Positions 6,192 through 63,200 of a stretch of 64,000 nt of DNA are shown piece by piece. The notes beneath the pieces are model-generated. The model saw nothing but the letters and a program-made list of their open reading frames with translations, was not told where the DNA came from and ran no database searches. Made by a program: the position numbers and the translations under genes. Where the stretch lies: IMG/VR virus record IMGVR_UViG_3300021962_000059. One strand, written 5' to 3'. This DNA comes from a virus. Positions within the stretch are counted from its first letter, which is position 1, and each line of letters begins with the position of its first letter.

Positions 6192-7733
6192 TTATTTATC
6201 CTGAGTGTAATTTGTTTTTTGTTGAGATGCTCGTTCAATTTCTCTAGCTAAATAGCCGATATGAAGGGATTGAATACTAGGGCAATCAGTAACTATTTGA
6301 CGGATTAGCTTTAAAGGATTCTTGCCTTCCCATTTTCCCACAAATTCACCATTAGGGGTTAGCTGACCAACTGTGATATTGTTCCCATCCGTTTCTACTA
6401 AAAAGTTACCAGTAGGGTCACTGTAAGATTGAATCTCTTTATTAATAATTGATTGATATTGATTATTAATTAGCTGTTCTACGTTTTCCCAACAGTCATC
6501 GTAAATATGGGCTGATTGACTAATAGTAATCAGTGGACCCATTGTTAAATCGTAGTCGGACTGACTAGCAATTCCATCTCTGATATGATGCTGTAAAGCC
6601 CGCAATCCCATTGCGTTAGCTGGCCAAGCGGAAAACATATCATTACTCCTAAAGGTAGCTGTCAGTGACAATTCATTATCTACTACTCTTACCCAAATAT
6701 GATTAAGGCAAGGTGAACCGCCGTGATTATGGTCTGAATCACCCTTTTTTCTTTCTCCTCGCACGATTGTATTATAATCGTTGTTACGCCAACTGTTATG
6801 TTCGGCAAGTATTTGATAGTTTCCACTTCCACTATCCCATAAAGACATAACGGCACTAGCTGAGTCAATTTCTTTGACTAATTTATTGATAACTGCTTTA
6901 ATTTGATCTTGACCAAACCAAGAACGCAATCGTTGACCATAGGTATATTTAACCCCTTCTCGATAATCAGCATCATCAAGTATTTGTGGAATATAGTTCT
7001 TTAGATACTCTTTATCTAAAGGTAAGTAATTGGGTTCGGGAAAGTAAAAGTCTTCTGGTTCATCGGTAACTATCGCCATTAAGTCGATTAATTCTTGCCA
7101 TTTACCATCATACCCAGTCGGTCTGATAGTGCCAGTGGTTTTGATTCTTTGCAGTATTTTTATCCAAGTTTCAGCAATAGTTTTACCTTCAATCCGATGA
7201 CCATAGAGCGGACCAGGTTTTACCTCTGATGTGGGTTCATTGTAGGGAAAGACCATTGGTTCTGCCCACGGTTTCACTTTAGAGTATTGATTTAAGCTCT
7301 TTATCTCTACTATCCAATCAAGATTTGAGACTACATTAATTGAAGACCGTGATTGATTTAAAACTTCCAAAGGAATATCTATATCAATATACCCTTTTAC
7401 CAAAGAGTCAATTATCCAGCACGGTTTCCCTACATCGTTTTTTCCTTTATAAACTCCATTTTCAAAGAAATCTTTTAGGCATTGAACACTACCAGAATTT
7501 TTGTCTTCACGGGTTGAATTTATTACAACAAGATAACGAACGTGGGGATTAGCTAACAAATTACGGACTAAAAAGTTAATTCCCCTTGATGCGCTATAAA
7601 GATTACCAATCACGGCATAATCAGAGGGATCAAGTTTTGAAGCTACCGACTTAGCGGGAGTCCATCCTGTACAGATAGCTATATGGCCTGTTCCGATGAT
7701 TAATTGATTAGGTTTGTAGATTGCGTTAAACAT
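6192..7733 (-). CDS. Thymidylate-synthase-fold (ThyA / dNMP hydroxymethylase family) enzyme fused to a ~250-aa N-terminal domain
   Basis: 513 aa. The C-terminal half carries ThyA-like motifs: YTYGQRLRSW, SLWD, catalytic-Cys motif GGSPCLNH, TFRSNDMFSAWPANAMG (RSxD plus Asn) and SAHIYDD. The N-terminal half (GHIAICTGW...) is not ThyA-like. Confidence 0.75.
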   Translation of the reverse strand: MFNAIYKPNQLIIGTGHIAICTGWTPAKSVASKLDPSDYAVIGNLYSASRGINFLVRNLLANPHVRYLVVINSTREDKNSGSVQCLKDFFENGVYKGKNDVGKPCWIIDSLVKGYIDIDIPLEVLNQSRSSINVVSNLDWIVEIKSLNQYSKVKPWAEPMVFPYNEPTSEVKPGPLYGHRIEGKTIAETWIKILQRIKTTGTIRPTGYDGKWQELIDLMAIVTDEPEDFYFPEPNYLPLDKEYLKNYIPQILDDADYREGVKYTYGQRLRSWFGQDQIKAVINKLVKEIDSASAVMSLWDSGSGNYQILAEHNSWRNNDYNTIVRGERKKGDSDHNHGGSPCLNHIWVRVVDNELSLTATFRSNDMFSAWPANAMGLRALQHHIRDGIASQSDYDLTMGPLITISQSAHIYDDCWENVEQLINNQYQSIINKEIQSYSDPTGNFLVETDGNNITVGQLTPNGEFVGKWEGKNPLKLIRQIVTDCPSIQSLHIGYLAREIERASQQKTNYTQDK

Positions 7734-17304: not shown

Positions 17305-17333
17305 ATATTACAGATTACTTTTTGAATTGTCAA
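17305..17333 (-). promoter_or_regulatory. Sigma70-type promoter TTGACA-N17-TAATAT
   Basis: The minus strand reads ATCTTGACA ATTCAAAAAGTAATCTG TAATAT, 22 nt upstream of the ATG at 17282. Confidence 0.7.
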
Positions 17334-28169: not shown

Positions 28170-28649
28170 TTAACTTTTAACCTCAACTATTTTGCAAAAC
28201 CTTAAAATAGTCTCCATTATCTTTATTGCCTCTGGAACCAAAATATTGAACTCTTCTTTGTTTCCGCTTGGATAAAGATTATATCTTGAGTTGCAGTCTG
28301 GTGTTTCGTTATAACCGTATATCCAACTTAAGGCAACCAAAGACCCGCCTAACGTACCTTCTATTGTGATTTTTTCAAGGCATTTGTCTACTAATTGATA
28401 TTCAGTCGAAATTTCTCGACATTCAATCAAAACTTCATACTTTTTACATTTTATTAACTTACCATAAGTTTTGTAAAGATAATCCTCTTTAATTATCAAA
28501 GTTCCTATTAAACGAATACATTTATCGTCTGCAACTGTATCCCATTCTGAGATGTCCACTGTATCGTATTCGGAGATGGTCATCTGCTCAAAAGTTTTTT
28601 TAAAGAAATCTCTGATTTCTTTAAGTGACTTTTCTTTTAATACTTCCAT
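28170..28649 (-). CDS. PF1 member, divergent subfamily C
   Basis: 159 aa. SLKEIRDFFKKTFEQ ... ALSWIYGYN ... PEAIKIMETILRFCKIVE. Confidence 0.55.
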   Translation of the reverse strand: MEVLKEKSLKEIRDFFKKTFEQMTISEYDTVDISEWDTVADDKCIRLIGTLIIKEDYLYKTYGKLIKCKKYEVLIECREISTEYQLVDKCLEKITIEGTLGGSLVALSWIYGYNETPDCNSRYNLYPSGNKEEFNILVPEAIKIMETILRFCKIVEVKS

Positions 28650-28659
28650 TGTTTTTACC

Positions 28660-28992
28660 TCAAATACAAATAACTAGATCACCGACACAAACATTGATAA
28701 ATTTCTCACAATCGTATCGAGAATTATTACAAGCTTGAATAATAGAAGTATTTTCCTCAATAGAAATAACCATCCCTGATCCCTTATAAAGGATACGATG
28801 ACCAATAAAGTCTCTAGTTATTGGGTCGTATATTGGGTTGTTTGTAATTGAATAAACCAGATGAGAGTCATTTATTCTCATACGATTTAATTCGCCACGG
28901 TTTATTACTACTTTAAAATCATCGATAACTTCAATTACCTTAGCTGGATACGTTCCTTTAGTCGGAAGTCCTAGCTCCTCGTCTGTTGTCAT
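28660..28992 (-). CDS. Hypothetical protein unrelated to PF1, embedded in the array
   Basis: 110 aa, beta-rich sequence, no PF1 terminal helices. Confidence 0.5.
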   Translation of the reverse strand: MTTDEELGLPTKGTYPAKVIEVIDDFKVVINRGELNRMRINDSHLVYSITNNPIYDPITRDFIGHRILYKGSGMVISIEENTSIIQACNNSRYDCEKFINVCVGDLVICI

Positions 28993-28996
28993 TGTT

Positions 28997-29113
28997 TTAA
29001 GTGCCTGTAGCCTCAGTTGTTTTAATAAAGCCTAAAATAGTCTCCATTATCTTTGTCGCTTCTGGAATTAAGATATTTAAGATTTCGTTGTCCCCCTCAC
29101 TTTTTGGCTCTTT
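28997..29113 (-). pseudogene. Truncated PF1 remnant (C-terminal ~35 codons only)
   Basis: It translates to ...DNEILNILIPEATKIMETILGFIKTTEATGT*, compared with the C-terminus of 28170..28649 (EEFNILVPEAIKIMETILRFCKIVEVKS). The DNA block aaaatagtctccattatcttt is shared (28201.. and 29033..). It keeps the upstream hairpin and SD but has no start codon. Confidence 0.6.
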
Positions 29114-29142
29114 TTTAATCTGTTACTCCTATTGGGTGAAAT

Positions 29143-29167
29143 TACTAGACAGATATTTTGTCTAGTA
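29143..29167 (-). promoter_or_regulatory. Conserved intercistronic hairpin (copy 1)
   Basis: TACTAGACA-loop-TGTCTAGTA immediately after the stop of 29174..29536, followed by CACCCAATAGGAGTAA (SD). Confidence 0.5.
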
Positions 29168-29173
29168 GTGTTT

Positions 29174-29536
29174 TCATTCTTGAATCTCATCAAGAATGAA
29201 AGTGAAGATGTCTAGCATTACTTTTCGGGTTTCTCTGTATTTGTTGTCAAAATAATCGCATTTTGACTTTCTAATATAATCAAAGAATATTTTATTTTCA
29301 TAAGAACGGTTATTGTCTCTATCGTCAGGGTTTATCCATAATTCAAATGTGCCTACATAATACGCTTCACATAAAACACGCTTAAGCAAGCCATCCAGAA
29401 AAACCTCTATTATTAATTCATCAGGAAAAAGTGGACACTGAATTATATTATTTTCAGGGTCAAGATTCCATCTTAAATTTGGATAACTTCTGTGACAGAA
29501 TTCCAATATTTTCTCTGTTATTTGTTTTATGTCCAT
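29174..29536 (-). CDS. PF1 member, subfamily B
   Basis: 120 aa. MDIKQITEKILEFCHRSYPNLRW ... VGTFELWIN ... VMLDIFTFILDEIQE. Confidence 0.7.
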   Translation of the reverse strand: MDIKQITEKILEFCHRSYPNLRWNLDPENNIIQCPLFPDELIIEVFLDGLLKRVLCEAYYVGTFELWINPDDRDNNRSYENKIFFDYIRKSKCDYFDNKYRETRKVMLDIFTFILDEIQE

Positions 29537-29551
29537 TGGTGTTGCTCCTAT

Positions 29552-29962
29552 TTATTCTTGAATTTCGTTAGCAATAAAATTGAAAATACCTAGCATCACT
29601 TCTCGATATTTTTTGTACAAGTCCCAGTCTTTTTTATCCCACTCTTTTGTTATTGGGAGACTACGAAAATCTATTTTTTTGTCACAATTTAGATGAATAC
29701 CAAACATCCCCAACCAACCTACATTAACTAGGTCAAAGTGTCCGATTATATAATCATCGGTAGTTTCTTCTTTATAAGAAGAAACATCATTTCTTTTGTC
29801 TGAGCAAATTTTTAGAGTTACTTTAAACAGAGAATCTACTCCACAAATTACAGTTTTATTTGTACATTCACTATTTAATTTATCTACATTCCACTCTAAA
29901 TCTGGGTATTGATTTAAGCAATAACCTGATATTTTGTAAGCTATTAGTTGTATCTCCATCAC
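29552..29962 (-). CDS. PF1 member, subfamily B
   Basis: 136 aa. IAYKISGYCLNQYPDLEW ... VGWLGMFGIHLN ... VMLGIFNFIANEIQE. Confidence 0.65.
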   Translation of the reverse strand: MMEIQLIAYKISGYCLNQYPDLEWNVDKLNSECTNKTVICGVDSLFKVTLKICSDKRNDVSSYKEETTDDYIIGHFDLVNVGWLGMFGIHLNCDKKIDFRSLPITKEWDKKDWDLYKKYREVMLGIFNFIANEIQE

Positions 29963-29974
29963 TGTTACTCCTGT

Positions 29975-30403
29975 CTATTCTTGAATTTCATCTTCAATAA
30001 AATTAAAGATTTCTCTCACCATTTTTCTGGCTTTTTTTACTAAAAGCCAGCTATCATCATTCCAATCGTCATGAGTAGCAAGCATAAGCTCTAATTCGCT
30101 GTCTTTGTTATGGTTTAACTTAACCTCAAAACTACCCGACCAGAAAAGTAGAGATTTTTCTTCTGATTGAGGTATTAGAAGCGACCCCAATATATAATCG
30201 TAAGTAGCTTCTTTTTCGTAAAACTCTTGTTTTTCATCTGAGCAAATTTCTAGCTCTAATTTAAATAAAGAGCAAGAGCCAAGAATAAGTGCGACAACGT
30301 TATAGTTATTTTTATGGCTGTCAAAATAGTTACAGTTCCAGCCTAAATCTGAATAACTTTGGCAGAAATTAAATAATTTTTCTGTCACTTGTTTTGTATC
30401 CAT
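29975..30403 (-). CDS. PF1 member, subfamily B
   Basis: 142 aa. MDTKQVTEKLFNFCQSYSDLGW ... FWSGSFEVKLN ... MVREIFNFIEDEIQE. Confidence 0.7.
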   Translation of the reverse strand: MDTKQVTEKLFNFCQSYSDLGWNCNYFDSHKNNYNVVALILGSCSLFKLELEICSDEKQEFYEKEATYDYILGSLLIPQSEEKSLLFWSGSFEVKLNHNKDSELELMLATHDDWNDDSWLLVKKARKMVREIFNFIEDEIQE

Positions 30404-30428
30404 TGATTTTACTCCTATTAGGTGAACT

Positions 30429-30453
30429 TACTAGACAGATATTCTGTCTAGTA
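30429..30453 (-). promoter_or_regulatory. Conserved intercistronic hairpin (copy 2)
   Basis: A 10-bp stem TACTAGACAG / CTGTCTAGTA right after the stop of 30460..30858, followed by CACCTAATAGGAGTAAAATCA-ATG. Confidence 0.5.
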
Positions 30454-30459
30454 TTGTTT

Positions 30460-30858
30460 TTACTCTTGAATCTCATTAAGGATGAAATTGAAAATGTCTA
30501 GCATTACTTTTCGGCATTGACTAGCTAATTTCCAATGTTCTGCACTCCATAGTTCATGTTTATAATAGGCAAGATTCTCAAAAACTATATAGTCTTCATA
30601 CCGATAGCTCATGTCTTCGATGGGAGGATTTATCCAAATTTTAAACTTTCCTATTTGGTTATCTTGCCACTCAACACACTTGAGTTGTCCGTCTAATCCC
30701 GACCAAATACCGTATTTAATCTTTATGCTGTCATCAGAAAAAGTTAAGCATTGAATGATTTTATAGTCATTATCTGTAAAATCAAAATTCCAGTCTAAAT
30801 CTGGGTATTTTTCTTCACAGAAATTTAGTATCTTTTCTGCTATTTGTTGTGTGTCCAT
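30460..30858 (-). CDS. PF1 member, subfamily B
   Basis: 132 aa. MDTQQIAEKILNFCEEKYPDLDW ... IGKFKIWIN ... VMLDIFNFILNEIQE. Confidence 0.7.
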   Translation of the reverse strand: MDTQQIAEKILNFCEEKYPDLDWNFDFTDNDYKIIQCLTFSDDSIKIKYGIWSGLDGQLKCVEWQDNQIGKFKIWINPPIEDMSYRYEDYIVFENLAYYKHELWSAEHWKLASQCRKVMLDIFNFILNEIQE

Positions 30859-31738: not shown

Positions 31739-31767
31739 ATCTTACATTATTCTACTAGAATTGTCAA
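31739..31767 (-). promoter_or_regulatory. Sigma70-type promoter TTGACA-N17-TAAGAT
   Basis: The minus strand reads TTCTTGACA ATTCTAGTAGAATAATG TAAGAT. It heads the operon running into the PF1 array. Confidence 0.7.
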
Positions 31768-31967
31768 GAAATTTCTTGAAAATCTTCTTTTCTAAAACAG
31801 TAAAATTGTTCTCCTTTTGTGAGGTGATCGATTGATTCAAAATGGTAGTAGATTCCTATGGCAGTCTTAATAATTCCCAGTGGTTTGCACTGAGGAAAAA
31901 TACGACCATAGGAATTGACACGATAAACTTTTTCAGGGTATCGAGAGGGAATATATTGTCCAATCAT
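31764..31967 (-). CDS. Hypothetical small protein
   Basis: The start is taken at MIGQYIPSRY (ATG 31967). The longer track ORF (to 31997) would overlap the tRNA-like T arm. Confidence 0.35.
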   Translation of the reverse strand: MIGQYIPSRYPEKVYRVNSYGRIFPQCKPLGIIKTAIGIYYHFESIDHLTKGEQFYCFRKEDFQEIS

Positions 31968-31968
31968 A

Positions 31969-32170
31969 GGTACTAGAGACGGGAATTGAACCCGCAAAAC
32001 TTAATTAAATCTACTCCTGACGAAACGCCCTTCCCTTACTCAATCTTTGCCAAGTTCGGTGGATTCGCAAATTTCAGTTTTGAAACAAAAAATAAAGGTA
32101 TTTTTTGTATTAAGTCCCTTTTCGGTTGAAGGCTCCGTTTCACAGCCTTTAGCTACCAAGCTACTCTAGC
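31969..32170 (-). ncRNA. tRNA-like structured RNA (~200 nt) with acceptor stem and T arm but a ~130-nt internal expansion
   Basis: The 5' GCTAGAG (32170..32164) pairs with CTCTAGT (31978..31972). A canonical T arm GCGGG-TTCAATT-CCCGT precedes it and A-CC follows. There is a D-like hairpin AGCT-TGGT-AGCT and a 6-bp hairpin AAGGCT/AGCCTT with a 9-nt loop. A 10-bp hairpin ACAAAAAATA/TATTTTTTGT is also present. The 5' G coincides with the +1 predicted from the promoter at 32177..32205. Confidence 0.5.
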
Positions 32171-32176
32171 ACTTCA

Positions 32177-32205
32177 ATCCTATCAGAGGCTTCTGAAATT
32201 GTCAA
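32177..32205 (-). promoter_or_regulatory. Sigma70-type promoter TTGACA-N17-TAGGAT driving the tRNA-like RNA
   Basis: The minus strand reads GGATTGACA ATTTCAGAAGCCTCTGA TAGGAT TGAAGT G(+1)CTAGAG. Confidence 0.65.
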
Positions 32206-32210
32206 TCCTA

Positions 32211-35096
32211 TCAGGTACTTATATCCTGTAGATAACAGTTAGAAAATGGAATTGTAAAAGCGATCACAGACCCATTTAAGATAGTTTCTACCCTCAAAAG
32301 CCATTGATTGTCAAAAGTCACTTCGATAACTTTTCCGACTGCTCTTGGTGGGATAGTTCGCTCTCCTATCTCTATAGATGCACCCGTTCGCACTAATACC
32401 CTTTCTTTTTCAAGATCAGGAAGACTATCAATGTGTACACCATCAGCCGAGAACTCATCGACTGGCTCCGATTCAACTTCTACTATCTCAGGGTTAGAGA
32501 TCGGTTCATTTTTTGGAGTAGGAGTGGGAATCTGGACAATTTCCTCTTTTATTTCTGATTGATATTCCAGAGATTCGGGTTCTTCTATCTCAAAAGCTTC
32601 TAATTCTTTTGGCTCTTGATAGCGCAGTATCATGCCCCTTGATTTGACCTCTAATCGTCCATAGCCAGCTTGTTCTAACTGAGTAAGTAGGGTGCGGGCA
32701 ATAGAGGTGTTTACTTTTTCCCCGTTAATTTTACGCCCGCCGAATTTTTGGGCAACTTCCCGGGGTTTAATCTGTCCTGCGCTTTTGACAATCTCCCATA
32801 TCTCGGATAAGATTCCCTGTACCGGATTCTCATCCTGAGAAGTAACCCCTTGAATTGTCAAGAATTGACTGATATAGAAGTCAGTCATCTTAGCAGCTTT
32901 TTTAGCTGTTTGTACTGGTATTTTATAGAGGTCGGTATTATCTGGATCAAATATCCAGTTCAATAGATGGATTGCCAGAGTAAGCCTTAAGAAAGTCTTC
33001 ATCTGTTTCCCTATATAAGAAGCAAATGATGGATTAATCGCCCGATACTTTTTGATAAGCATCTCGTAATGATACTTAATACCGAAGGCATAATCCTCTC
33101 CAGTTTCGGTAAACCAACAATTATAAGGATCGACGATTCCATCTTCATCAGCTTCTAGATTAATCCCGCTGATTTGATTGATAATATTTTGGATGCACTC
33201 TTGAATCGAGTTAGGGTCTTCTGGCGGTCTCCCACGTTGAGGATCGAGGGGTTCATGCAATAGGAAAAGAAACCGAGAAACCAATCCATCTACATCATTA
33301 GATAGGTCTAAGTATTTTTGTACTTTCTGTATCTGTATCCCACCTAATATATTGATAGTTTGCCCATTCAGGAAATAGCGATTTTCCTCTTTTACCCTAT
33401 CAAAAGTATTTTGTACTGGATCATTCCAAGATGATAATAATCGTTGCCGGTCATTACCTTTACCGCCCGACCGGTATTGATTTAAGCCTTCAAATAATCC
33501 CGTTAACTCATCCGCTACCCACACCCCACCTTGCCAACGAGGTTGAGTGGACATCGTTTTCAGGACACCATCGAAAGTTCCTTCGTCATAAAACCAGCGA
33601 CGGGATTGACAGTTTTCTTTTTCGTAAAGACTAGGATTTACTTCAGCGTTTTCTTTGTGTATGCTACGCTCTTCGCGGGTCATTTCTGCCCATTCTGCTT
33701 TTAATTCTTTTAGCCTAGCTTGCTTTTTAGAGAGCCTTTCTAACTCATCTAAGTCCTTTCTTTTTAATACCTTGTAAATTTCTTTTTGAGTAGTAGTTTT
33801 CCCACTACTTACACCACCAGCATCAGCACAATAAAAAATCGGGTATTCTTTCCAGCACTCCCTTTCCCTTGCAGTAGTTCGGAGGTTAACTGCAAATCGA
33901 CTACCTAAGATAGCCCCTAATATTGGCCATAGGGAGTGTAGCAATCGGATTGGGGGCTGGTTAAGTGTTCTGGCGCGGGATATGATTGCCTCAGCTAAAG
34001 GTTGGGGTAATATTTGAAAAAGATCAATCTCTTTTTTCTGATAATGCTTACCCCTTAAAAAACCCTCTAATCCTGTTTTAATAGCGTCCCCTTCCGCTAT
34101 TTCTGTTTTACGAATTTCGATTAAATGCCGTATTTCTGTTGGCTTTTTACCAGTGGCTTTTGCCCATAAATCGACTTTTTCTTGCCATTGGGTTCTAGTG
34201 ATTTCCTCTTGTCCAATACAGCCGTCAATGGCTGTTATTAAGTCTTGGAAAGTCATAGTTTCTGTTACTGTGACTTCCTTCTCTTTTTTCTCCTTTACTT
34301 CTTTTGGTTTGTCAACTATCGAGGCTAATAGTTCTTTAAGATCAATTTTCTTTTCCTCAATCCAGTTGATGATATCTACCCCCTGAGAATCTGGCAAGTG
34401 ATTCCATATAAGAGAGTCTGGATAGGCATAAAGCCATTTTGCTTCTGGGAAATCTTGATAAATTTTCTGGCAGTGAGCTACTCCCCCTTTGTCACGGTCC
34501 GGGCATAAAACTAATTTTGCTCCCTTTAAAGCTTCTGTGTGAGACGGTTGCCATTTCTTTGATCCGCCTATATTGCAAGTGGCAACTAATCCAAAAGATT
34601 CAAGCTTTTCTACTTTAGTCTCACCCTCGACTATATAAATCGGAGTTCCTTCCTTGATAGCCTTTTCTAGGCGATCTGCGTGGTAAAGAGGTATATTTTT
34701 GTACTCAATATCACCTATGCCCCACTTCCAGTTTTTACCATTATCTGTAGAGTGCTGTTGTTTTATATCCTTTTTCCAAATACCATCTTCTTTGTAATCC
34801 TTCCGGTACACACGGACTCTCACCCCATTGGCAAGAGGGGGATAAAGGAAGTATTGGGTTTTTTCTTCTTTATAGGCAGAAAATTTGACTTCTTTTTTAA
34901 GATAGTAGAGCGGTGTACCCTCACTATCTACTTTGCTCGATTTTTCCCATCCTGGTGCGGGGTCATAGTTTCGTTTGCAGACTGAGATGGTATTGCCGTC
35001 ATCGGCTACATACATATAGCACCAATCGGGCTTGCCACAGTGGGGGCAAGGATTGTTTTTGTCGATCTTGACACGGTTAGAGTTTTGTGTTACCAT
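32211..35096 (-). CDS. DNA primase / helicase (Zn-binding N-terminus + Toprim + P-loop NTPase domain)
   Basis: 961 aa. CPHCGKPDWC...VCKR, Toprim motifs IYIVEGETKVEKL and LCPDRDKGG, and Walker A DAGGVSSGKTT. Confidence 0.8.
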   Translation of the reverse strand: MVTQNSNRVKIDKNNPCPHCGKPDWCYMYVADDGNTISVCKRNYDPAPGWEKSSKVDSEGTPLYYLKKEVKFSAYKEEKTQYFLYPPLANGVRVRVYRKDYKEDGIWKKDIKQQHSTDNGKNWKWGIGDIEYKNIPLYHADRLEKAIKEGTPIYIVEGETKVEKLESFGLVATCNIGGSKKWQPSHTEALKGAKLVLCPDRDKGGVAHCQKIYQDFPEAKWLYAYPDSLIWNHLPDSQGVDIINWIEEKKIDLKELLASIVDKPKEVKEKKEKEVTVTETMTFQDLITAIDGCIGQEEITRTQWQEKVDLWAKATGKKPTEIRHLIEIRKTEIAEGDAIKTGLEGFLRGKHYQKKEIDLFQILPQPLAEAIISRARTLNQPPIRLLHSLWPILGAILGSRFAVNLRTTARERECWKEYPIFYCADAGGVSSGKTTTQKEIYKVLKRKDLDELERLSKKQARLKELKAEWAEMTREERSIHKENAEVNPSLYEKENCQSRRWFYDEGTFDGVLKTMSTQPRWQGGVWVADELTGLFEGLNQYRSGGKGNDRQRLLSSWNDPVQNTFDRVKEENRYFLNGQTINILGGIQIQKVQKYLDLSNDVDGLVSRFLFLLHEPLDPQRGRPPEDPNSIQECIQNIINQISGINLEADEDGIVDPYNCWFTETGEDYAFGIKYHYEMLIKKYRAINPSFASYIGKQMKTFLRLTLAIHLLNWIFDPDNTDLYKIPVQTAKKAAKMTDFYISQFLTIQGVTSQDENPVQGILSEIWEIVKSAGQIKPREVAQKFGGRKINGEKVNTSIARTLLTQLEQAGYGRLEVKSRGMILRYQEPKELEAFEIEEPESLEYQSEIKEEIVQIPTPTPKNEPISNPEIVEVESEPVDEFSADGVHIDSLPDLEKERVLVRTGASIEIGERTIPPRAVGKVIEVTFDNQWLLRVETILNGSVIAFTIPFSNCYLQDIST
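35068..35096 (+). promoter_or_regulatory. Possible + strand promoter TTGACA-N17-TACCAT, antisense to the primase start
   Basis: The -10 overlaps the primase ATG (35094..35096). A + oriented terminator follows ~35 nt downstream. Confidence 0.3.
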
Positions 35097-40754: not shown

Positions 40755-41765
40755 TTAAAAATCTTCAGTAACAGGTTCGCTACCACCATAATCAATATCT
40801 TCACTGCTAACTTCTATTGGCTTTTGTCTCGCGTCTATAGCTTTTTTTAGGAGGTCAGCTAGTTCTTTTGCAGTGGTTGCTTTTTGTGCTATTTCTTCAG
40901 CTTCTGATTGAGGTAAGTTTTGAGAAACAGCCCAAGCAATACCAGCTTGTTTGCGATCTTCTGGTAGCGATGGTGAAGGGTTAAGCATTTTTGCGTTTCC
41001 CATCGACGCAGGAGTTAGAGTTTTTACAGGTTCTACATTTCCTGTAAATTGCTGAAAAGCTTTTGTTTCAATGATTTCTAGAACTTGAGATGCTCTGCTA
41101 GGGTGAACACGAATCGACAAAAGGCTAAAAGTTTTTCGTTTTCGTGTGCCGTCTGGTAAAGGATAAGATAATTCTCTTAAGCCGCGTTCTAATAAAAAGG
41201 GAATACCAATCAAACTACCAGCAGAAGTTTCAATCGCTAACAGTTGTTCTGTCAATCCGATAATATCCCATTTTGAGTGAGTCTCAACTTCAAAATAACC
41301 TAATTCGCCTAGCTTGGGTAAAACAATCTGCAATCGCCCAACTTGCTTGCATTTACACCCTGAATAACTTCCGTCAGGGTTTTGTTGTCGTTTGCATGGG
41401 ATGGGATTAGTAGCAATCATTTTGCCAGCTTGCTGATAAATCACTTGCTTTTCTTCGTCACACCGAATCATCAACCCAGAAGTTTTTAAATCTTTATCAC
41501 TCCACTGCTCCATCCAACAAGGAAATACTTGATCTGTATAAGGAAAAGGTAACAAGCAATCTAATTGCTTAGGCTCTTTCCCGTAAATAGCGGTAAATTT
41601 TTCGCTGATTCCCTGAATATCAGAATCAATTCGGAAGTATTCTAAATCATCTCCGCTTATTAGAGTGCCAGGTTTTTTAGGGTTTTCTTTTTTTTCTCCC
41701 CCTTTGCGAATTTTTCCTAATAGAGGAAATCGGGCTTGTCTTGTCGTTAGAGATTTGATAGGCAT
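40755..41765 (-). CDS. Hypothetical early protein, possible ssDNA-binding/recombination protein
   Basis: 336 aa. N-terminal ARFPLLGKIRKGGEKK. The acidic C-terminal tail ends ...SEPVTEDF, which recalls the acidic Phe-terminated tails of SSB and T7 gp2.5. This is inference only. Confidence 0.3.
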   Translation of the reverse strand: MPIKSLTTRQARFPLLGKIRKGGEKKENPKKPGTLISGDDLEYFRIDSDIQGISEKFTAIYGKEPKQLDCLLPFPYTDQVFPCWMEQWSDKDLKTSGLMIRCDEEKQVIYQQAGKMIATNPIPCKRQQNPDGSYSGCKCKQVGRLQIVLPKLGELGYFEVETHSKWDIIGLTEQLLAIETSAGSLIGIPFLLERGLRELSYPLPDGTRKRKTFSLLSIRVHPSRASQVLEIIETKAFQQFTGNVEPVKTLTPASMGNAKMLNPSPSLPEDRKQAGIAWAVSQNLPQSEAEEIAQKATTAKELADLLKKAIDARQKPIEVSSEDIDYGGSEPVTEDF

Positions 41766-46481: not shown

Positions 46482-46564
46482 TGGGTTGGGCTGGATTTGC
46501 ACCAGCGTGGAATTAAATCTACAGATTTACAGTCTGTCACCTTCGGCTACTCGGTCACCAACCC
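46482..46564 (-). tRNA. tRNA-Tyr (GUA), class II with a long variable arm
   Basis: GGGTTGG-TG-ACCGAGTAGCCGAAGGT-G-ACAGA-CTGTAAA-TCTGT-AGATTTAATTCCAC-GCTGG-TGCAAAT-CCAGC-CCAACCC-A (83 nt). Confidence 0.8.
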
Positions 46565-53812: not shown

Positions 53813-54247
53813 CTAAGATTTTACCACTCCCGAAACAGGTACTCGATAAACCAGTACAGGTGGGTACTCATGGATATAGGTTTTAATCACGCCATTTATT
53901 GAGTCGGCGTGAATATATTCCCCGTCGCCCAAATAGATGCCCACATGACCATTTATGCCTGATTTGCGAAAGACTAAAACATCTCCCTTGTCTAGACTAC
54001 CTTCTACTCTTATCAGAATACTCTCAATAAATCTCACTAAGAAGTTGTTCCTAGGAATGCGTTCGTAGTTTTCGATGATGAAATCGTAGGGTAAGAATCC
54101 GACTTTAATCCCCACGCCAGCGATAAATCCTACGCAATCGGTTCCAATACCTTTGAGGGATTGACCATGAAACCAGGGAGTACCAAGCCACTCGATAGCC
54201 TCGGTAACAATTTGATTAGCTAAAGAATCGTTTTTTAGTTCGTTCAT
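53813..54247 (-). CDS. NlpC/P60 (C40) cell-wall peptidase, RcGTA g14 / lambda K-like
   Basis: 144 aa. LGTPWFHGQSLKGIGTDCVGFIAGV (catalytic Cys) and GHVGIYLGDGEYIHA (His). It overlaps the tape measure stop by 32 nt. Confidence 0.8.
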   Translation of the reverse strand: MNELKNDSLANQIVTEAIEWLGTPWFHGQSLKGIGTDCVGFIAGVGIKVGFLPYDFIIENYERIPRNNFLVRFIESILIRVEGSLDKGDVLVFRKSGINGHVGIYLGDGEYIHADSINGVIKTYIHEYPPVLVYRVPVSGVVKS

Positions 54248-57200
54248 TTTGTGCGTTTTCCCGTTCTTTCAATTGATTTAAACTATAACCCATATCATTT
54301 CGTGATTCTACAGTAACGTTGTTAGTGTTATTGATTACTAAAGATTGATTAGAACTATTGTTATTTGAGGTTGTGGAATAGTTAGGTTTACCTCCGACAA
54401 ATCCCCCGTTAGCATAATTTTTAATAGGAGCGTTATTTCTGTATTCTAGATAGGCTTCTGTCTCTTTAGGGTTAAGAACTAACTCATCTTCATTGGCTAC
54501 GATTAAGCGAGGTTTTCGACCGCCACTCATCGCTCGTTCGCGTTGGAAAGCTGAAATGATGTTTTTCTCTATCGGAGCGTTAGCTTTACCTACTTTTCCA
54601 CCATCACTAAAAAGGCTAAATCCTGTACCTAGAGAAAAGGCAGAAGCCGGAGTAGAAGCAAAACCAGATGGGGCTATACTACCAAGTAAACCAATCGAAC
54701 CAAGTCCGCCTAGTCCTCCACTAAAAACTCCTGTTATTCCGCTAAGTAGCCCATTAAATAAGCCACCGCCGCCACCTCCCCCAAAGATAGAAGAAAAGAT
54801 GTTACCTACTGGTTTAAAAATACTGTTTAGGGCATTAGCAAAGAAGTTACCTACTGGCCCGATGATTGCATTAAATACCGATTCAAATGCCTGAGTAATT
54901 GGTTTAGTGAATCCATCGATAGCAGAAGTTAAAGCATCGATAGCAGGCTTGGTAATACCCTCAACAAATTTTGTCATGATATTTAATCCAAGACTACTGA
55001 AAGCTGATCCTATTCCTTTTCCTTCTCTAATATCAGAGAAAAAGCTTTCAGCCGCGTTACGATTTGGAGATGTGTCTAATGCTACTCGCTCTAATCTTAA
55101 TTCTGCAAGTTTTTCCCATTCCGAGCGGATATTAGCTACATATTCAGCGTATTCTGGTAATCCTTCATAAACTTGAAGATAATCTTCTAGTTCTTCTTTT
55201 TCTTTTTGTAGGCTAATACGTTCGGCAAGGATAGCAGAATCGTCAAATAATCCAGAACCAGATTGAAATTCTAGTCGCATTCTTTGGATAGTTAAATCAT
55301 TTAACCGGTCGCGAATACTTCTGACTGTATCTCTGGTTCTTCTGAATGATGCTTCCAAGGTAGCCGCTCCCTGATTTCTACCTAATTGTTCAATTGCTTG
55401 ATCGAGGATCGCTACCTGTTCTTTAGCCAATTCAGCGTTTTTAGCTAAAACCTCAATACTATCTGTCATTTCTTTGACAAATTCAGGGGGAAGGGCTATA
55501 CCTTCTCTTTGGAATTCCCCTAAGATTTCTTTTATTGCGTCGCTGTATTTTTGTTGGGCATCGGCATTTAAAAGCAAAGTCCGTCGCTGGTCTTCTAGTG
55601 ATTCAATCTGAGAGCGATATTGTCGAGAGACTTCTGTGGCACTCTTATTAATTTCCTCTTGTACTGTCAGATACCCTTTAGAATTGATAGTCAAGTCAGC
55701 GACATTTTCAGAAGCATCTCTTAAGGTCCGTTCTAATGTACGGGCATCCTCTTCTTGTTGTCGTCTAAATCTGATTGATCTGTCAAGAGCATTGTTTAGA
55801 TTTTGTTGCTCTTCTAATCGTCTTAAAAACTCCTGACTGTTTCGTTCGGCTATTTCAGCATTGCGAATTTGATCAGCCGCCGTGCCAAGATTAGCCGTAG
55901 GGAGATTAGGAACGGGGGGTAAATTAGGATTCTGGAAGTTAATCGGATTATCTTTAAGAACTGGCGGTAAATCGGCATCCCAGAAATCATCTTGATTTTG
56001 ATTAGGTAAAGTCGGTAATTGGGCTATGGACGGGGGAGATGGTAGCTCTTGAGCTATAGATGGGGGACTGCTAAATTCTGGGCCACCTTGACCGCCGCGA
56101 CTTGTTTGTTTGCCGTCAAGATCGACAAACATTGAATTAGCCCCTGATTGAACTACCCAGTTAGCGATTTTTGCAATTTGATTGGGATCGGTAAAAACAA
56201 GGCATCCCGCACTGCCAAGCTGTAAATCGTCTAAATGGAATCCGATTTGTGATCTCCCAGTAGAGAACTTTGGTTCGGCTCCTATCCACGCAGGACCAAC
56301 AGTTCCTAGCGGAATTTGGCTAGGTTTATAATTTGCAAGCTGTCCAGAATTAAATTGTCGAAGATAACGAGATGCGTGGTTAGCGTCAACAGACCAATTG
56401 CCGTCAGGCAGTGGAGTTTCACTGCCACGAATATTGGTTCTATTAGTTCCAATTGCAGACTGCGTTGATGGTCTTCCTGTTACTCCTCCGATTACTGTAT
56501 CTACTACTTTTCCGTCTTTGATTAAATCAAATTGAAGTATCTCTAGTCCTTCTGGTGTTCTCTGTCCAGATTTTCTTACTAGGATATTTGATCCTTTTTG
56601 TAGATTTTGCGGTAATTGTAATGCACTGGGGACAACTGGACTTTGAGAAGGGACATTAGCGCCTTGACCGCCTTGATTCCTTCTGATTTGTTGAACACGG
56701 TTTAATGCCCCGCTATTAGCAGGATTGTCGTTATATTGCAGTGCTTCTAGTTCAGATTGAGTACGGGGAGCATTTGGTTGATATTTTCGTAAAGACTGTT
56801 CATAAACTTTTAACAGGTCTTCCATCCGTTTCATGCCTTGCCCTGGGTAATTAGCCCCTGGGAAAGATGCCCATTCTTTGCGGGTTGCGTTAATTGCCCC
56901 ACGAATATCCCCTTTAAGAAGCTCGTCTAAACCACCTCTCATTAAAATACGGCTTAAGGCTACTAAATCTTGAGAGACGGGAGAGAAGTCTTTTAACCCT
57001 AATTTTGATTTTTCTTCATCCCATGTAAAATCCATAATCTGGTATCTTCCAGATGCAGAGGAACTGGTTGATCCAAACGGGATTCTTTGACGTGGATGAT
57101 CCGCAAAAGAACTAAATTGTCCATGTCCAAAAAGGGTGTTATATCCCTTATTTGGCATATTAGCAGTACCTTCTGCATAAGCAATAGTATCAAGGAAAGC

Positions 57201-60200
57201 CTTAACATAAGGATTGTCTAAATGTTGAGATAATTCTTGTCCGCGGCGTGTTAACCCATTAGGAATTGAAGGTGACTGTAACGGTGGCGGCGGCAAAAAC
57301 CCTCCCCCATCCCAAACAGGAGCAGGGATAAAATTACCAGGAGCCGGTAATATTAAACCTTCCTTAGCTTTTCTGATTGCCTCGGCAGTTTCTTCTATAC
57401 TTTTTACCAAGTCTTCCCCAGAAGTCTTGATATTTGGGGGAATAGCTACTAACTCAGAATTGATTAATTTAATCGGTTCTGGGAGTGTATTGAGATTTGC
57501 GACAATATCCTTGATTGATTGGGGAATAAAGCCTAATTCTTTATTGGTTTGTCGGATTAAGTCAGCTAAGGTGCGATTAAGATTTTCTTGGGTTCGTTTA
57601 ATATCCTCAATCGTTCTTAGTCGGTTTCTTTCAGCTTCTTGCTGTTGCTCTTGTAGGTTGCGAATATTTCTTAAGGTAGAGATATAGGAAGTTTCTATCT
57701 CTTCGGTTCGGGACTGGAAAGTACGACCGCGACTAGCAAGGTCAGCTTGTCCCTGTACAAATTCTAGGAAAATGTCACCTAACTCTTTACCAGCGTCACT
57801 TGTACCGGGTATCAATAACCGGTTTTTGACTTGCTGTACCCTGATTCTATCGGTTGTATCCAGTAGCTGATTTTGGGTATTTAAAAGGTTCTTGTCGAGT
57901 TCCCTGACTAAATCACTGTAACTTTCAGATAGGGAACGATTCTCTTTAAATGCTGATAGTTGAGCGTCTTCGACTTGTCTTCTGTAGTCCTCAATCTGCC
58001 GGTTGAAGTCAACTATTTGACGGTCAAGGTTGCGGTAATAGTCTTGTAGCGAGGTTTGTTGCTGTAATAGGTTAGCGCGGGCTTGTTCTAGGGCTAATTC
58101 CGCTGCAACGATTTGTGATTTAATTTCTATTGGATTACCAGTGTTGTCTGCTAATTGCTGATAAAGTAATCCAATGGCTTGAATCCTTTCCTCTACATCT
58201 ATTTCAGCATTTCTTAAAGAAGCATTAACACCACCAAACGGATTAGCACGAATTACGTCAATACGTTTTCTTGCAATTTCAGAATCTACTCTTAATTTAG
58301 TTTCTGACTGATGCTTTCTTAGTCTATCTTGAGTAGCGTCATATTCAGACTTAGCAAGAGATAATCTAGCTGATGCTAGTTCTTTCTCCGCTTCAAATGT
58401 AGCTTTTCTCGTTTCCTCAATCGCATCTACCTGCTCTTGAGTTCGCCCTGATTCTGGAACGCTTAAATATTGTTCTAGGGTTTGCTGTTGTTTTGTTAGG
58501 TTTGCCTCAAATTGTTTAATTCGTTCTTTTTGAGTTTGAATTTCAATATTTCTGGTTTGTTCTCCAATTTGCACTGGATTTAAGTTAGAACGATAAACTG
58601 CTGTTTGATCATTTAAAGATTTATTTTCAATACGTCGCATTGTTTTTTCGTATTGAACTTCAAAATCTCTTATTGCATCAGTCGCTTTTTGCCATGCTGA
58701 TTCTAACGGAGTTAGTATGTCATAAAAACCAGCTTCTTCTAAAGATTTTCTGGTTTCTTCGACTATTTTTTGATTGCCTTCTACAATTGCCCTTAAAGCC
58801 TTTTTAGCTCCTTCTGGTAAATCCTGTTTATCAATCGCTTCGATACGACTGTTTAATCCTTTTCTTAATGACTCAAAATCAGTCATAAATTCGTCTAAAG
58901 GCTTAATCTTTTCTTTTCTAAGATCATTAAGTCTTTTAATTTCTTTGTCTATTTCTCTGATTCTAACTTTACTTTCAGATGTATTTGTTAACCCTGCGGT
59001 TGTTCTTTCTTTTTGCAGTCTTTGTATAGAAGCATCAATTATTTTAGCCTCATTAGCAAAGGGGTTAAGTAAGTTGATCGATTTACCTACAGTTTCAGGC
59101 ATTAACGACTGACCAGTTAATGCTTTTGATATTTCTTGATTAACTCTTTTTAGGTCTCTAGCACTATTTAAAAGCTGACTTTGCGCAAGTGTAAATTCAC
59201 CATAGTAGTCATTAAAATATTTTTCTAAGCCAGGTGATAATGCTCCTGCTTCTAATCTGGTAGCTTTAGCAATGCGATTTTTTTCTATGTCTTTTGGAGA
59301 AGGTGGCCGAAATCCAAATATTTCATTAGGTAGTCCCAGTGGACTACGCCCGTCTTTTATAGCATCATCACTTTTGTAACTAGAACTTTCGTCTCCTAGT
59401 ATAGCCATTAAGTTTAGTTCTAGCCCTTTTGAGGGAAGTTCATCTCCTCGCTTAACTTTTACTTCTAATGTAGGAGCTTCTAACTTATTTAATAATTTTT
59501 GAATATTGTTAATGCTTGCACCTATTTTTTGTTCTGATTCGTTTAAACTGGCCTGTAAAGGATTTGTAAAATCACTTCTAGCAAAAGCCATAAATCCTAG
59601 AGCAACAAAAGCCTTAAGAGCGATATTAAGAGCAACTAAAGCCCCTTTAGCCATGGCACTACTAGCGAATAAAGTATCAAATACTCCCCCTAAACTTTTA
59701 GCATTAGTAGCCGCTGTCCATATCGCCCCACTCATTCCTTTAAAAGTTAACCATAGTTTACTCAGTAAAGGTACTAAGAACATTTGCCCTAATACAATAA
59801 GCTGTTCAAACATAAAAGTTAAAGCAGTTAGCTCAAAAACACCGCTAGGAATAGATTTAAAAAGATTACCTAATGTATTTCCGATTGATTGTATTGGATT
59901 GACTGCTTTTTCCCAGTTGTAACCAAAAAAGCCTTTTCCTGATGCACCGTAAGAAATATTCTCTAAACTACCAATAGAAGCGGCGATTATGTTTGTAGTT
60001 CCTTTCGCCATGTTTGTAAACAGGTCGTTTTCAGTATTAAAAACGTCATCGATTACATCGGCTAAAATACCAGACATAAATGGGGTTAAAGTAATTAAGC
60101 CTGTTTTCCACGCGCCCATTATAAACCCTTGTATATTACTAACAACAGGTGCTATTTTAGGCATTGCTAAAATGGTTGACAGCCCAATGCCAACTTGCGC

Positions 60201-63200
60201 TACTACGCCAATCGTAAATGCTCCTGCGAGTTGTGAGATAATTCGGAAGTTATCACTAAAAGCCGTAACAATGCCCGATGCTAGATTGGTAATCCCAGCA
60301 AACATACCTCCAAAAATATCAGTAAAATTCCGATCTAATTTAAATAAAGCTGTCTCCATCGAAGCAAGCGCACTGGTAAAATCACTTGTACCTTTTTCTG
60401 CTGCAGACCCGAATTCTTGTTCTAGAATTTTTGTGACTTTTGGTAAAACTTCATCGGATAAAAGCGAGCCTTTTGCCACTAATTGACCCAGTTCTGCTTG
60501 GCTAACCCCTAGTGCTTTAGCAAACACTGACATAGTTGGTGGAAATTTCTCGCCCAGCTGCTGCCTGAGCTCTTCCATTGAGACCTTATTTTTTGCAACC
60601 AGCTGGGTATAGGCGTTGAGAACTAAACTAGCATCAAAGGTATTTAATCGCAAGGCTTTAATTGACGCTGTGATAGCAGAAAAAAGCTCTTTAGTTGCTT
60701 CACCTTCTAGTTTTGTTCCCTTTGTTGCTACTGCTAATTGAGTATACCCTTCTGACAAAGACTGCAAGGAAACTCGATATTTTTCTGCTAATCCTAACAG
60801 ATACTTGTATTCAGCGTCAGATTTAAGCGGATCGCCTGTAACAGCGTTCAATCTAGCATTAAAGTTTTCTACTCCCTGTATTCTCTGACTAGCTCCCTGA
60901 AAAGCAGGTGATACCATGTTAATCCCACCAGATACAGCTAAAGCCGTCGGTAGTAATGGCAAGGCTAAAGGGGCTAAAGATGCTAATGCTGGCAATAAAG
61001 GATTAGACATTGCAGTCATGCCAAAAAGCATACCAAAACCTTCTCTTGCCACGGTTTCTCTTTCGCTAGGGTCTTTGCTAATTTTCCGCTTAATGCTATT
61101 ACTCATATTCCGGAAAAACTTATCAAAGTAAGATTCAGTACCAAAATCTGCATATTTTTGAGCTAAGGTTTCTATTTTTGCATCAGCGAAAGTAGAACGA
61201 CGGACTCGATTTAATGCCCTTAAAGGTCGGTTTAAAAATCCTTGTAAAGATGTTTCTTCTTGTCTTTCTTGTTTTAATCTTGCCAATTCAGCGCGTTCTC
61301 GGGCTTCTTTCTCTCTGGCAGCGCGTCTGTCAAGAATAATTTTTCTTCTGGCTTCTATATTAGCCATTGCTTTAGGGTCTGGCGCGCCTAATCTACGAAG
61401 CCCTTCTATTTCTTCTTGTACCCTTTTTTCTGTTTCTTGTTGTCGTTTTTTCTCTTGTTCTTTAATAGATTTCCATTCTTGAGGCGATTTAATTCTTTGA
61501 TTCTTTTGAGCTTTGTTAGTTTCTTGTTGGATAAAGACATCCCTAGCAGATTCTAATTTGTTCAACAGTTCAATGGTTCTGTTGCTATTAGCTCCAAATT
61601 GTCTAATAGCAATTTGAACAGCTTTTTGCAATTTGTTTAGATAGTCTTGATTAATCTCTTTAGTAGCGAAAGAAGGTGAAGATATGCGGTTAAGCCCATC
61701 AACTTCCCTTTGAATTAACTGGTTAGTATTATCTCTACGTTGACCAATAGACTGTCTTAACTCACTAATCCTAGATTGTCTTCCCCAATTGTTACTACGA
61801 TTAATACCAATTGTTTTTTGAGTCTTTAGCCAATCCTGAAACTCTTTAGCTCGTTTCTGTTCGTATCTGTCTCTTATCGCTTGACGTTTTCTTTCTAGTT
61901 CAGCTAATCTTTCAGGGGATTGAGACAAAGCTAATCTGTTTAACCCATCAACTTCCCTTTGAATTAATTGATTAGTATTGTCCCTGCGTTGACTAATAGA
62001 CTGTCTTAGTTCGCTAATACGAGACTGTCTATTCCAATTAGTGTTACGATTAATACCAATTGTTTTTTGAGTTTTTAACCAATCTTGGAACTCTTTAGCT
62101 CTTTTCTGCTCGTATTTATCTTTTATAGCTTGACGCTTAGCCTCAATATCGCCTAGTCTCTCAGGAGATTGAGCGATAGATAAAGACGATGCCAATCTGT
62201 TTAAATCAGTAATCTCTTTCTGTACACTTCTTTCTGTTTCTTGTTTTAATTTAGCTTCTTGCTCTCTTTTTCTTTTAATGGATTCTGCTTGTTGGTTTAT
62301 TTCTTGCTTAGTTTTAGGAATGCGGTTAACTTTACTAGCTTCCTGCTTAGCTACAATTCCTCTGGCAGATTCTAATTTATTTAGCAATTGAATAGTTCTA
62401 TCGCTATTAACTCCGAATTGTCTGATAGCAATTTGAACAGCTTTTTGTAATTTATTTAAATAATCGTCGGTTATATCTCTACTAGCAAAAGGTGAAGATA
62501 TGCGGTTAAGCCCATCAACTTCTTTTTGTATTAACTGGTTGGTATTATCTCTACGTTGACTAATAGACTGTCTTAACTCACTAATCCTAGATTGTCTTCC
62601 CCAATTGGTACTACGGTTGATACCGACATTCTGAGTCTTTAACCAATCTTGAAACTCTTTAGCTCTTCTCTGCTCGTATTTATCTTTTATTGCTTGACGT
62701 TTAGCCTCAATATCAGCTAATCTTTCAGGGGATTGAGACAAAGCTAATCTGTTTAATCCATCAACTTCCCTTTGAATTAATTGATTAGTATTGTCCCTGC
62801 GTTGACTAATAGACTGTCTTAGTTCGCTAATACGAGACTGTCTATTCCAATTAGTGTTACGATTAATACCAATTGTTTTTTGAGTCTTTAGCCAGTCTTG
62901 AAACTCCTTAGCTCGTTTCTGTTCGTATTTATCTTTTATTGCTTGACGTTTAGCCTCAATATTAGCTAATCTTTCAGGAGATTGGGCGATAGATAAAGAC
63001 GATGCTAATTTGTTTAAATCAGCAATCTCTTCTTGGACTTTTTTCTCTGCTTTTTGTTGCTGGTTTCTTTCTTGTTCTTTTCTTTTTTTAGTTAATTCAG
63101 CTTGCTCATTTATTTCTTGTTTGGTCTTAGGAACGCGATTAGCTTTATCAGTTTCTTGCTTAACTGCAATCTTTTTAGCAGATTCTAATCTATCTAATAA

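Follow-up and report, generated by a model that had tools for sequence, protein, structure and literature searches.

A 64,000-nucleotide (nt) stretch of viral DNA, IMG/VR record IMGVR_UViG_3300021962_000059 (here, the window), carries on its minus strand a 245-bp cassette consisting of a promoter and a gene for a predicted RNA of 200 nt, which has the arms of a tRNA and a 133-nt insertion at the variable-loop position. Judged by sequence comparison, the RNA gene belongs to a real and conserved family, unannotated and confined to phages of Microcystis. Our preferred reading, held tentatively and with confidence a little short of even, is that the locus is a self-contained, horizontally mobile cassette encoding a stable tRNA-mimic RNA. 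An earlier reading of the letters of the window (the original prediction) had proposed a promoter-driven, tRNA-derived noncoding RNA with an expanded interior. That proposal gained support from conservation, from structure-compatible variation among copies, and from the tRNA call that ARAGORN made once the interior was excised, and all of its statements about the sequence itself proved correct on the minus strand.

A predicted promoter and a tRNA-like body

The promoter and the parts of the RNA are as follows (RNA positions are counted from G1).

32200..32205, minus strand: −35 hexamer TTGACA, the same in all copies
32177..32182, minus strand: −10 hexamer TAGGAT with TG upstream; variation only at hexamer positions 3 and 4 (TAGAAT, TATAAT, TAAAAT, TAGCAT)
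31971..32170, minus strand: predicted RNA, G1 to discriminator A200; CCA not encoded
32164..32170, minus strand: 5′ strand of the acceptor stem, GCUAGAG, RNA 1-7; pairs with RNA 193-199
32150..32163, minus strand: D-like hairpin, RNA 8-21; stem of 4 to 5 bp, 4-nt loop UGGU
32129..32149, minus strand: anticodon-like hairpin, RNA 22-42; 6-bp stem, loop core AAACG the same in all copies
31996..32128, minus strand: insertion at the variable-loop position, RNA 43-175; in silico removal gives an ARAGORN tRNA-Val call
32085..32108, minus strand: A/U hairpin, RNA 63-86, whose apical loop varies; in Ma-LMM01, each arm lacks 1 nt, the two deletions matching
32036..32068, minus strand: candidate 10-codon frame, ANPPNLAKIE*, RNA 103-135; GCG AAU CCA CCG AAC UUG GCA AAG AUU GAG UAA
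32021..32027, minus strand: CGUUUCG, RNA 144-150; the complement of UGAAACG, the anticodon-like loop
31979..31995, minus strand: T arm GCGGG-UUCAAUU-CCCGU, RNA 176-192; directly before the 3′ acceptor strand
31972..31978, minus strand: 3′ strand of the acceptor stem, CUCUAGU, RNA 193-199; pairs with RNA 1-7

The consensus promoter TTGACA-N17-TAGGAT with +1 at 32170 stands as first described when read on the minus strand: a 17-nt spacer separates the hexamers, and the promoter lies 6 nt upstream of G32170, the first letter of GCTAGAG. RNA position 1 is G or A only among copies, both of which pair with U72 and, as purines, suit initiation. The pattern TTGACA-N16-18-TANNAT occurs 8 times in the window (0.87 expected), once before tRNA-Tyr, and by its sequence the promoter is of the kind in general use by the window phage. 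The seven other exact occurrences, at 17305, 31739, 32785 (plus strand), 35068 (plus strand), 42099, 46438 and 46577, are mostly intergenic and on the gene strand. The Microcystis phage Ma-LMM01 reportedly depends throughout its infection on promoters of the SigA type (PMC5780444).

An exact 13-nt direct repeat, CTGATAGGATTGA, lies at 32174-32186 and 32202-32214, its copy 1 giving the −35 and its copy 2 the −10 hexamer; it is similar to the 3′ half of the Microcystis type I-D clustered regularly interspaced short palindromic repeat (CRISPR). Mimicry of that repeat was considered by comparing the promoter repeat CCCTGATAGGATTGAA with the 3′ half of the Microcystis I-D repeat, CCCTATTAGGGATTGAAAC (PMC4428289). 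It was rejected because among copies the −10 hexamer (TA..AT) is kept and the hairpin is not, and the likeness is best explained as promoter sequence.

The body follows tRNA anatomy closely. The acceptor stem has 7 bp with G·U as its first pair, GCTAGAG (32170-32164) matching CTCTAGT (31978-31972), and is followed by discriminator A200 (A73 in tRNA numbering) and CC. This pairing had been noted originally, as had the D-like hairpin AGCT-TGGT-AGCT with its GG and the canonical T arm GCGGG-TTCAATT-CCCGT just before the 3′ acceptor strand, and all are present. The T arm carries G53-C61 and a T-Ψ-C-R-A loop, position 57 being A or G only, as in real tRNAs. Within the window, the T-loop motif GGTTCRANTCC is found at only two sites, the RNA element and tRNA-Met.

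The anticodon-like hairpin of the window copy reads AAGGCT-GTGAAACGG-AGCCTT, with either a 9-nt loop or a 2-nt bulge. The nonstandard 9-nt loop of the original prediction is thus present in the window copy but is not typical of the family, since most relatives lack the GT and have an ordinary 7-nt loop, GAAACGN. This loop (G-A-A-A-C-G-N) has A at position 33 and AAC as its "anticodon"; with A33 in place of the near-universal U33, the RNA would therefore be no normal decoder.

A35, C36, and A73 are invariant across copies, and these are the main valine identity nucleotides (PMC9976931). Their presence in the loop and at the discriminator makes charging by valyl-tRNA synthetase (ValRS) a concrete possibility. 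We nonetheless consider it improbable that the RNA is a chargeable relative of valine tRNA as such, one that is valylated by host ValRS and either decodes GUU or acts as an aminoacyl donor or sensor like the valine-type tRNA-like structure (TLS-Val) of plant viruses. Such an RNA would account for the invariant identity nucleotides, for the intact acceptor stem, T arm, and D-loop GG, and for an insertion placed where class II tRNAs tolerate extra arms. It sits poorly, however, with A33, with A34, which is not normally used in bacterial tRNA-Val, with the bulge or 9-nt loop of the window copy, with the ribosome clash that a 133-nt domain would likely cause, with the complementarity of the anticodon-like loop to the insertion, and with the five copies in which the acceptor stem is broken.

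Detection by standard tools and structural support

ARAGORN and Rfam at its gathering threshold reported only tRNA-Met and tRNA-Tyr in the window and missed the RNA. A permissive Rfam scan (E ≤ 10) of the region gave as its sole match a partial tRNA of 15.8 bits, covering the T arm and acceptor. When RNA 43-175 was swapped in silico for 5 to 7 nt, default ARAGORN called tRNA-Val(AAC) with the four arms as described above; the anatomy is therefore that of a tRNA body with a 133-nt variable-loop insertion. A variable region of 133 nt is outside the canonical tRNA range of 4 to about 24 nt. Of the checks that the original prediction had suggested, ARAGORN in its default and transfer-messenger RNA (tmRNA) modes and Rfam at its gathering threshold did not call the native RNA as a tRNA or tmRNA.

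ARAGORN in intron mode modeled a tRNA-Pro(GGG) interrupted by an intron of 105 nt. For a group I intron, we required a length of about 200 nt or more, a position in the anticodon loop, and a match to a group I model. An intron-bearing tRNA was rejected because the insert is too small for group I, it has no Rfam match (E ≤ 10), and the spliced product would be without a normal loop.

Structural support was assessed on an alignment of 32 distinct RNA sequences with a mean column identity of 97%. Under the proposed structure, paired cells make up 99.3% of all stem cells, versus 43 to 54% when the 3′ partners are slid by 1 to 3 columns, and one-sided stem changes nearly all yield G·U pairs. Three pairs change on both sides. 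In the acceptor stem, where 96.9% of cells are paired, pair 6:194 goes from A-U to G-C via G·U; in the A/U hairpin, pair 71:78 changes from U-A to C-G; and pair 30:149 goes from G-C to A-U in one lineage (G30A plus C149U), with G30A alone in two related sequences.

The 133-nt insertion

RNAalifold predicts that the insertion forms a closing helix (55-62/166-173), the A/U hairpin, a second long helix (97-104/157-164), and two small hairpins. The A/U hairpin has 10 bp, ACAAAAAATA-CCTT-TATTTTTTGT. It had been described originally as enclosed by ACTTAAT/ATTAAGT; both elements exist, but that pairing closes the whole 133-nt insertion and not the hairpin alone. The 12-mer GTAGATTTAATT, correctly said to be common to the RNA and the variable arm of tRNA-Tyr (46482..46564), has exactly those two sites in the window, where 0.05 are expected.

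CGUUUCG within the insertion is likely to contact the anticodon-like loop, which this modeled pairing would mask. The CGUUUCG/UGAAACG duplex is calculated at −7.6 kcal/mol and was matched by 26 of 2,000 insertion shuffles (stronger than 98.7%).

The short frame in the insertion bears on the other proposal made originally, that of a minimal tmRNA. This proposal did not hold up: ARAGORN in tmRNA mode found no match down to a 60% threshold and Rfam tmRNA models none at E ≤ 10; among the 32 distinct sequences, pair 3:70 reads U-A in 30 and U·G in the 2 with a replaced 3′ strand, and is never G·U; and a 6-bp anticodon-like arm is kept, contrary to the definition of a tmRNA. What remains of it is the frame, in which all four variable sites are synonymous (GCG>GCU, CCG>CCA, UUG>UUA, and UAA<>UGA). 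Each of these sites is also either unpaired or a G·U-to-A-U change in the consensus fold, so that structure explains them equally well, and an unrelated frame on the opposite strand has the identical all-synonymous pattern by chance.

We therefore weighed tmRNA-like ribosome rescue, in which the charged body would enter stalled ribosomes and translation would resume on the internal frame, adding ANPPNLAKIE, and judge it distinctly unlikely. The frame begins with GCN and encodes Ala-Asn, as do many tmRNA tags, and its sites vary synonymously. It is no ordinary open reading frame (ORF), given frame-breaking indels in the upstream hairpin and no conserved in-frame start codon; if translated, it would be by a tmRNA-like route. 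Against this stand the U-A third acceptor pair in place of G3·U70, the anticodon arm, the negative ARAGORN and Rfam results, a tag without the usual hydrophobic ..AA end, and the structural and chance explanations of the synonymous sites.

A further, very unlikely reading is a tRNA-mRNA hybrid of a new class, in which a chargeable body would carry, in its variable-loop domain, both a short resume frame and a cis "codon" GUU (in CGUUUCG) already paired with the molecule's own anticodon-like loop. Such a molecule could enter stalled ribosomes without SmpB, tagging or releasing nascent chains, and phages would spread the cassette to survive mRNA- or tRNA-cleaving abortive-infection systems.

Relatives, conservation, and selection

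The element occurs in about 70 phage genomes or contigs. Exact-pattern scans recovered it in full on 47 IMG/VR contigs, 11 Joint Genome Institute metagenome contigs, and 2 contigs of metagenome-assembled genomes (MAGs); the 11 metagenome copies, all from a single scan, were near-identical. No interior fragment on its own was found among the exact-pattern matches, and a gapped IMG/VR pattern running from the D arm to the T loop matched only this RNA family and two tRNA clusters, with no divergent homologues that could have deepened the covariation. Two contigs, L034 (JBIPMW010000308.1; 86 kb) and L035 (CAZWKD010000043.1), are binned in Crocinitomicaceae and Acidimicrobium MAGs and carry the full element between flanks of the window type; they probably represent Microcystis phage DNA placed in the wrong bins. 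At five loci from different samples (L038, L040, L043, L044, and L048; e.g., L038:7562-7762), the 3′ acceptor strand and discriminator are swapped, from CTCTAGTACC to CTGGGGAC.

The window phage (~85-kb type) is not a Fukuivirus: it has gene transfer agent (GTA)-like tail genes, ribonucleotide reductase, and a DUF3987 primase. Compared with nine deposited Microcystis myovirus genomes (Ma-LMM01, MaMV-DC, and others), the window matched over about 316 nt only, at 91 to 92% identity. In all nine, the RNA region is an unannotated gap by tRNA-Tyr, the RNA is oriented against its neighbors, and the RNA itself is 92 to 95% identical to the window copy. In Ma-LMM01 (NC_008562), it lies at about 144,860-145,080, on the strand opposite gp162 and tRNA-Tyr. 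The parts common to the window and the Ma-LMM01 group at the DNA level are the RNA element and one other island only. That island, 28204-29549, has 88.7% identity with some Ma-LMM01-type phages, not with Ma-LMM01 itself. The tRNA-Tyr(GTA) genes of the window (46482-46564) and Ma-LMM01 (L001:4361-4445) are about 93% identical, the genomes being otherwise unrelated; in the myoviruses, tRNA-Tyr lies about 50 to 340 nt from the RNA and is convergent with it.

Within the window-type lineage, the RNA is 93 to 97.5% identical to the window copy, the downstream ORF 88 to 92%, and the 3′ end of the primase gene 85 to 89%, except in L035 (75%). In Ma-LMM01, some 10 nt from the primase end and 18 codons from the downstream ORF survive, both of window type, remnants from which we infer that the cassette moved from a window-type phage into the myoviruses. 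Since the RNA is conserved in Ma-LMM01 while this ORF has decayed and the neighbors are opposed, selection acts on the RNA itself. The pattern of conservation shows the whole RNA to be under purifying selection. Our literature search found no paper linking Ma-LMM01 or Microcystis phages to a tmRNA or tRNA-like RNA and none mentioning this RNA.

Cassette junctions and mobility

The cassette and its borders comprise the following.

31969..32213, minus strand: whole cassette (promoter and RNA gene), 245 bp; insertion/deletion polymorphism, from filled and empty sites in close relatives
32213..32219, minus strand: left junction repeat AGTACCT, in the last codons and stop of the primase gene
31968..31974, minus strand: right junction repeat AGTACCT, in the RNA 3′ end (A70 G71 U72 A73 CC U)
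31764..31967, minus strand: downstream 67-amino-acid (aa) ORF, with its ATG 3 nt past the junction

Filled sites carry a junction repeat of 5 to 7 nt, (AG)TACCT, on both sides, and empty sites a single copy, (A/G)TACCTAATG. With slashes marking the junctions, filled sites read ...AAGTACC/TGATAGG...(245 nt)...CTCTAGTACC/TATGATTGG, and empty sites read ...TATAA(A/G)TACCTAATGATTGG.... A primase protein search gave 36 window-type loci with 82 to 92% amino-acid identity. Window-type loci with a readable junction numbered 39, of which 26 were filled and 13 precisely empty, including 84-kb and 90-kb contigs. When the 1.2 kb upstream was used to build a tree, genomes with and without the cassette were intermingled, which implies either that the cassette has been exchanged repeatedly by recombination or that it has been gained and lost more than once. 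These comparisons show a cassette that is accessory, dispensable, and polymorphic and that, by its sequence, has crossed between unrelated Microcystis phages (the window type and the Ma-LMM01 myoviruses).

At L036:4750-4850 (also in L039, L041, and L046), a decayed second promoter, its −35 partly deleted, is followed by the initial ~70 nt of the RNA, the copy being 89% identical. This second copy lies 1.2 kb upstream of the full element, with reverse-strand ORFs between, and looks like a tandem-duplication remnant.

The position of the cassette directly before the 67-aa ORF raises a cis-acting alternative, in which the cassette would supply a strong promoter and the tRNA-like fold would be a processing signal that frees a nearly leaderless mRNA for the 67-aa gene and its operon. 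No terminator lies between the RNA and the ORF, whose ATG follows so closely, and at empty sites the ORF start overlaps the primase stop (TAATG), so that the ORF there would rely on translational coupling to primase. Such a role would leave the 133-nt insertion unnecessary, however, and in Ma-LMM01-type phages the ORF is cut to 18 codons or replaced and the RNA runs against its neighbors, yet the RNA remains about 95% identical. We regard this alternative as quite unlikely. Pfam gave no match for the 67-aa ORF or for neighboring small ORFs.

The original prediction had also raised a tRNA gene disrupted by an insertion. The anatomy fits, but a wreck does not: conservation is equal in the insertion and the tRNA body, and the functional unit is therefore the whole RNA. 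A functionless RNA, either the remains of a tRNA gene killed by a selfish insertion or a phage attachment (attP) core for integration into a host tRNA gene, is in our estimate highly improbable. A 7-bp inverted repeat, ACTTAAT/ATTAAGT, does bound the insertion, the junction repeat coincides with the tRNA-like 3′ end, and the window encodes a Gp3-like recombination directionality factor. Yet body and insertion are more conserved than the flanking genes and are kept across lineages, and interior motifs occur in IMG/VR only inside full elements.

The original prediction had named, as a contrary outcome, an attP core identical to a host tRNA 3′ end together with an integrase. In 185,579 species-representative genomes, the 25-nt T-arm/acceptor string was present on only 2 contigs, both carrying the whole phage element; no host tRNA gene was among the matches, and no host attachment site (attB) was found. 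No integrase family was among the 25 of 28 matched Pfam families listed for the 50 scanned window ORFs (at least 100 aa), a scan that did not take in the 3112-aa ORF and most small ORFs. The attP core is therefore unsupported. A miniature inverted-repeat transposable element was likewise rejected, the interior motifs being confined to full elements, and a plasmid search gave no match. The Gp3-like domain (E = 2.8e-25) belongs to a 336-aa ORF at 40755-41765.

Proposed mechanism and role

In the mechanism that we propose, host RNA polymerase would start at G1 or A1, and RNase Z and then the CCA-adding enzyme would process the 3′ end after A73; in window-type phages, the same cut would also release the downstream mRNA. 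The L-shaped body would give stability and dock on a host tRNA-binding protein, with the extra domain exiting on the side where tRNAs can accommodate long variable arms. The insertion would fold back, CGUUUCG on UGAAACG, and this pairing together with A33 for U33 would bar the RNA from normal decoding.

As the most likely role, though one that we hold at well below even odds, the RNA would act as a decoy for a host factor directed at tRNAs, or compete for it; a defense nuclease is an example. A counterdefense decoy would explain the accessory, "moron"-like behavior of the cassette. Microcystis, the host of Ma-LMM01, is a bloom-forming cyanobacterium with a famous defense arsenal, and a dispensable, promoter-equipped cassette spreading among phages of one heavily defended host has what we infer to be the usual profile of a counterdefense or host-takeover moron.

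Several points weigh against the picture of a stable, folded tRNA mimic acting as a decoy. Diversity is low, which makes the covariation support thin and leaves most stems invariant, and the minimum free energy z-score is only −1.9. A local hairpin competes with the loop-to-insertion pairing and also tolerates C149U. At five loci, replacement of the 3′ acceptor strand (TCTGGGGAC) breaks 3 of 7 acceptor pairs with the remainder of the RNA intact; an intact acceptor may be dispensable, or these copies may be newly dead. The target of a decoy, whether a partner protein or a defense system, is hypothetical.

If the RNA is a decoy for tRNA-directed defense, it would be an RNA-based counterdefense of new design, and the variable-loop position of a tRNA would be able to hold a 133-nt functional domain. 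This would bear on the origin of tmRNA-like molecules and on the use of tRNA scaffolds in RNA engineering. Natural genetics is at hand in near-isogenic phages with and without the cassette and in its spread into the unrelated, cultured Ma-LMM01. Phage tRNA-like stable RNAs go back to the T4 species 1 and 2 RNAs, and we know of none with an established function.

Other features of the window

Three further features lie away from the cassette.

29174-30858: four tandem paralogous ORFs of 120 to 142 aa, all ending ...F(N/T)FI..(D/N)EIQE, which adjoin the island 28204-29549
54216-63554, minus strand: a single 3112-aa ORF
6192-7733: a 513-aa ORF with a thymidylate-synthase-like region, a C-terminal pterin-binding DUF4346, and a weak MtrA-like N terminus, an unusual fusion

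Comparison with known RNAs

The RNA is outside the tmRNA, canonical tRNA, and YrlA families. In tmRNA (SsrA, including phage-encoded forms), as here, the ends form an acceptor and T-arm module and the large interior holds a short frame with an Ala codon first. Unlike tmRNA, the present RNA lacks G3·U70, keeps an anticodon-like arm, has its insertion at the variable loop and not in place of the anticodon arm, lacks a tmRNA-type D-loop analogue, and is only ~200 nt long.

Class II tRNAs share with it an extra arm between the anticodon and T stems, as well as the 12-mer in the variable arm of the phage tRNA-Tyr. In tRNA-Sec, a 4-nt D loop on a long D stem and a 6-bp anticodon stem recur, as in the present RNA. 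It differs from both in its 133 nt, compared with about 20 nt in natural variable arms, in A33, and in its nonstandard anticodon. YrlA (Y-RNA-like) RNAs are modular noncoding RNAs, some of them phage encoded, that likewise join a tRNA-like domain to a second domain. In them, the Ro-binding stem is made by the ends and the tRNA-like part lies inside, the reverse of the arrangement found here, where there was also no Rfam match to them.

The TLS-Val carried by turnip yellow mosaic virus is a viral tRNA mimic whose valine identity resides in A35 and C36 of an anticodon-like loop that is not used for decoding (PMC9976931). The present RNA is also viral and has A35 and C36 in an anticodon-like loop, and by analogy its mode of action could be that of a valine-type viral tRNA mimic. 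TLS-Val, however, terminates an RNA genome at its 3′ end and has a pseudoknotted acceptor, whereas the present RNA is a separate DNA-phage gene with a normal acceptor stem.

By analogy of design, the closest precedent is T4 species 1 RNA (rnaC, 139 nt), which likewise has a canonical T arm (CCGGG-UUCGAAU-CCCGG) beside paired 5′ and 3′ ends and a large structured interior. It and species 2 RNA (rnaD) are phage encoded, as is the present RNA; the T4 pair is stable and nondecoding, with functions that to our knowledge are still unknown. Past the T loop, the present RNA has no sequence similarity to them. The T4 RNAs are cut from a tRNA-cluster transcript, have neither a promoter of their own nor a recognizable D or anticodon arm, and are not known as a mobile cassette. 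Unlike rnaC, the present RNA combines its own predicted promoter with a complete tRNA body, a variable-loop insertion, and the mobility of a cassette.

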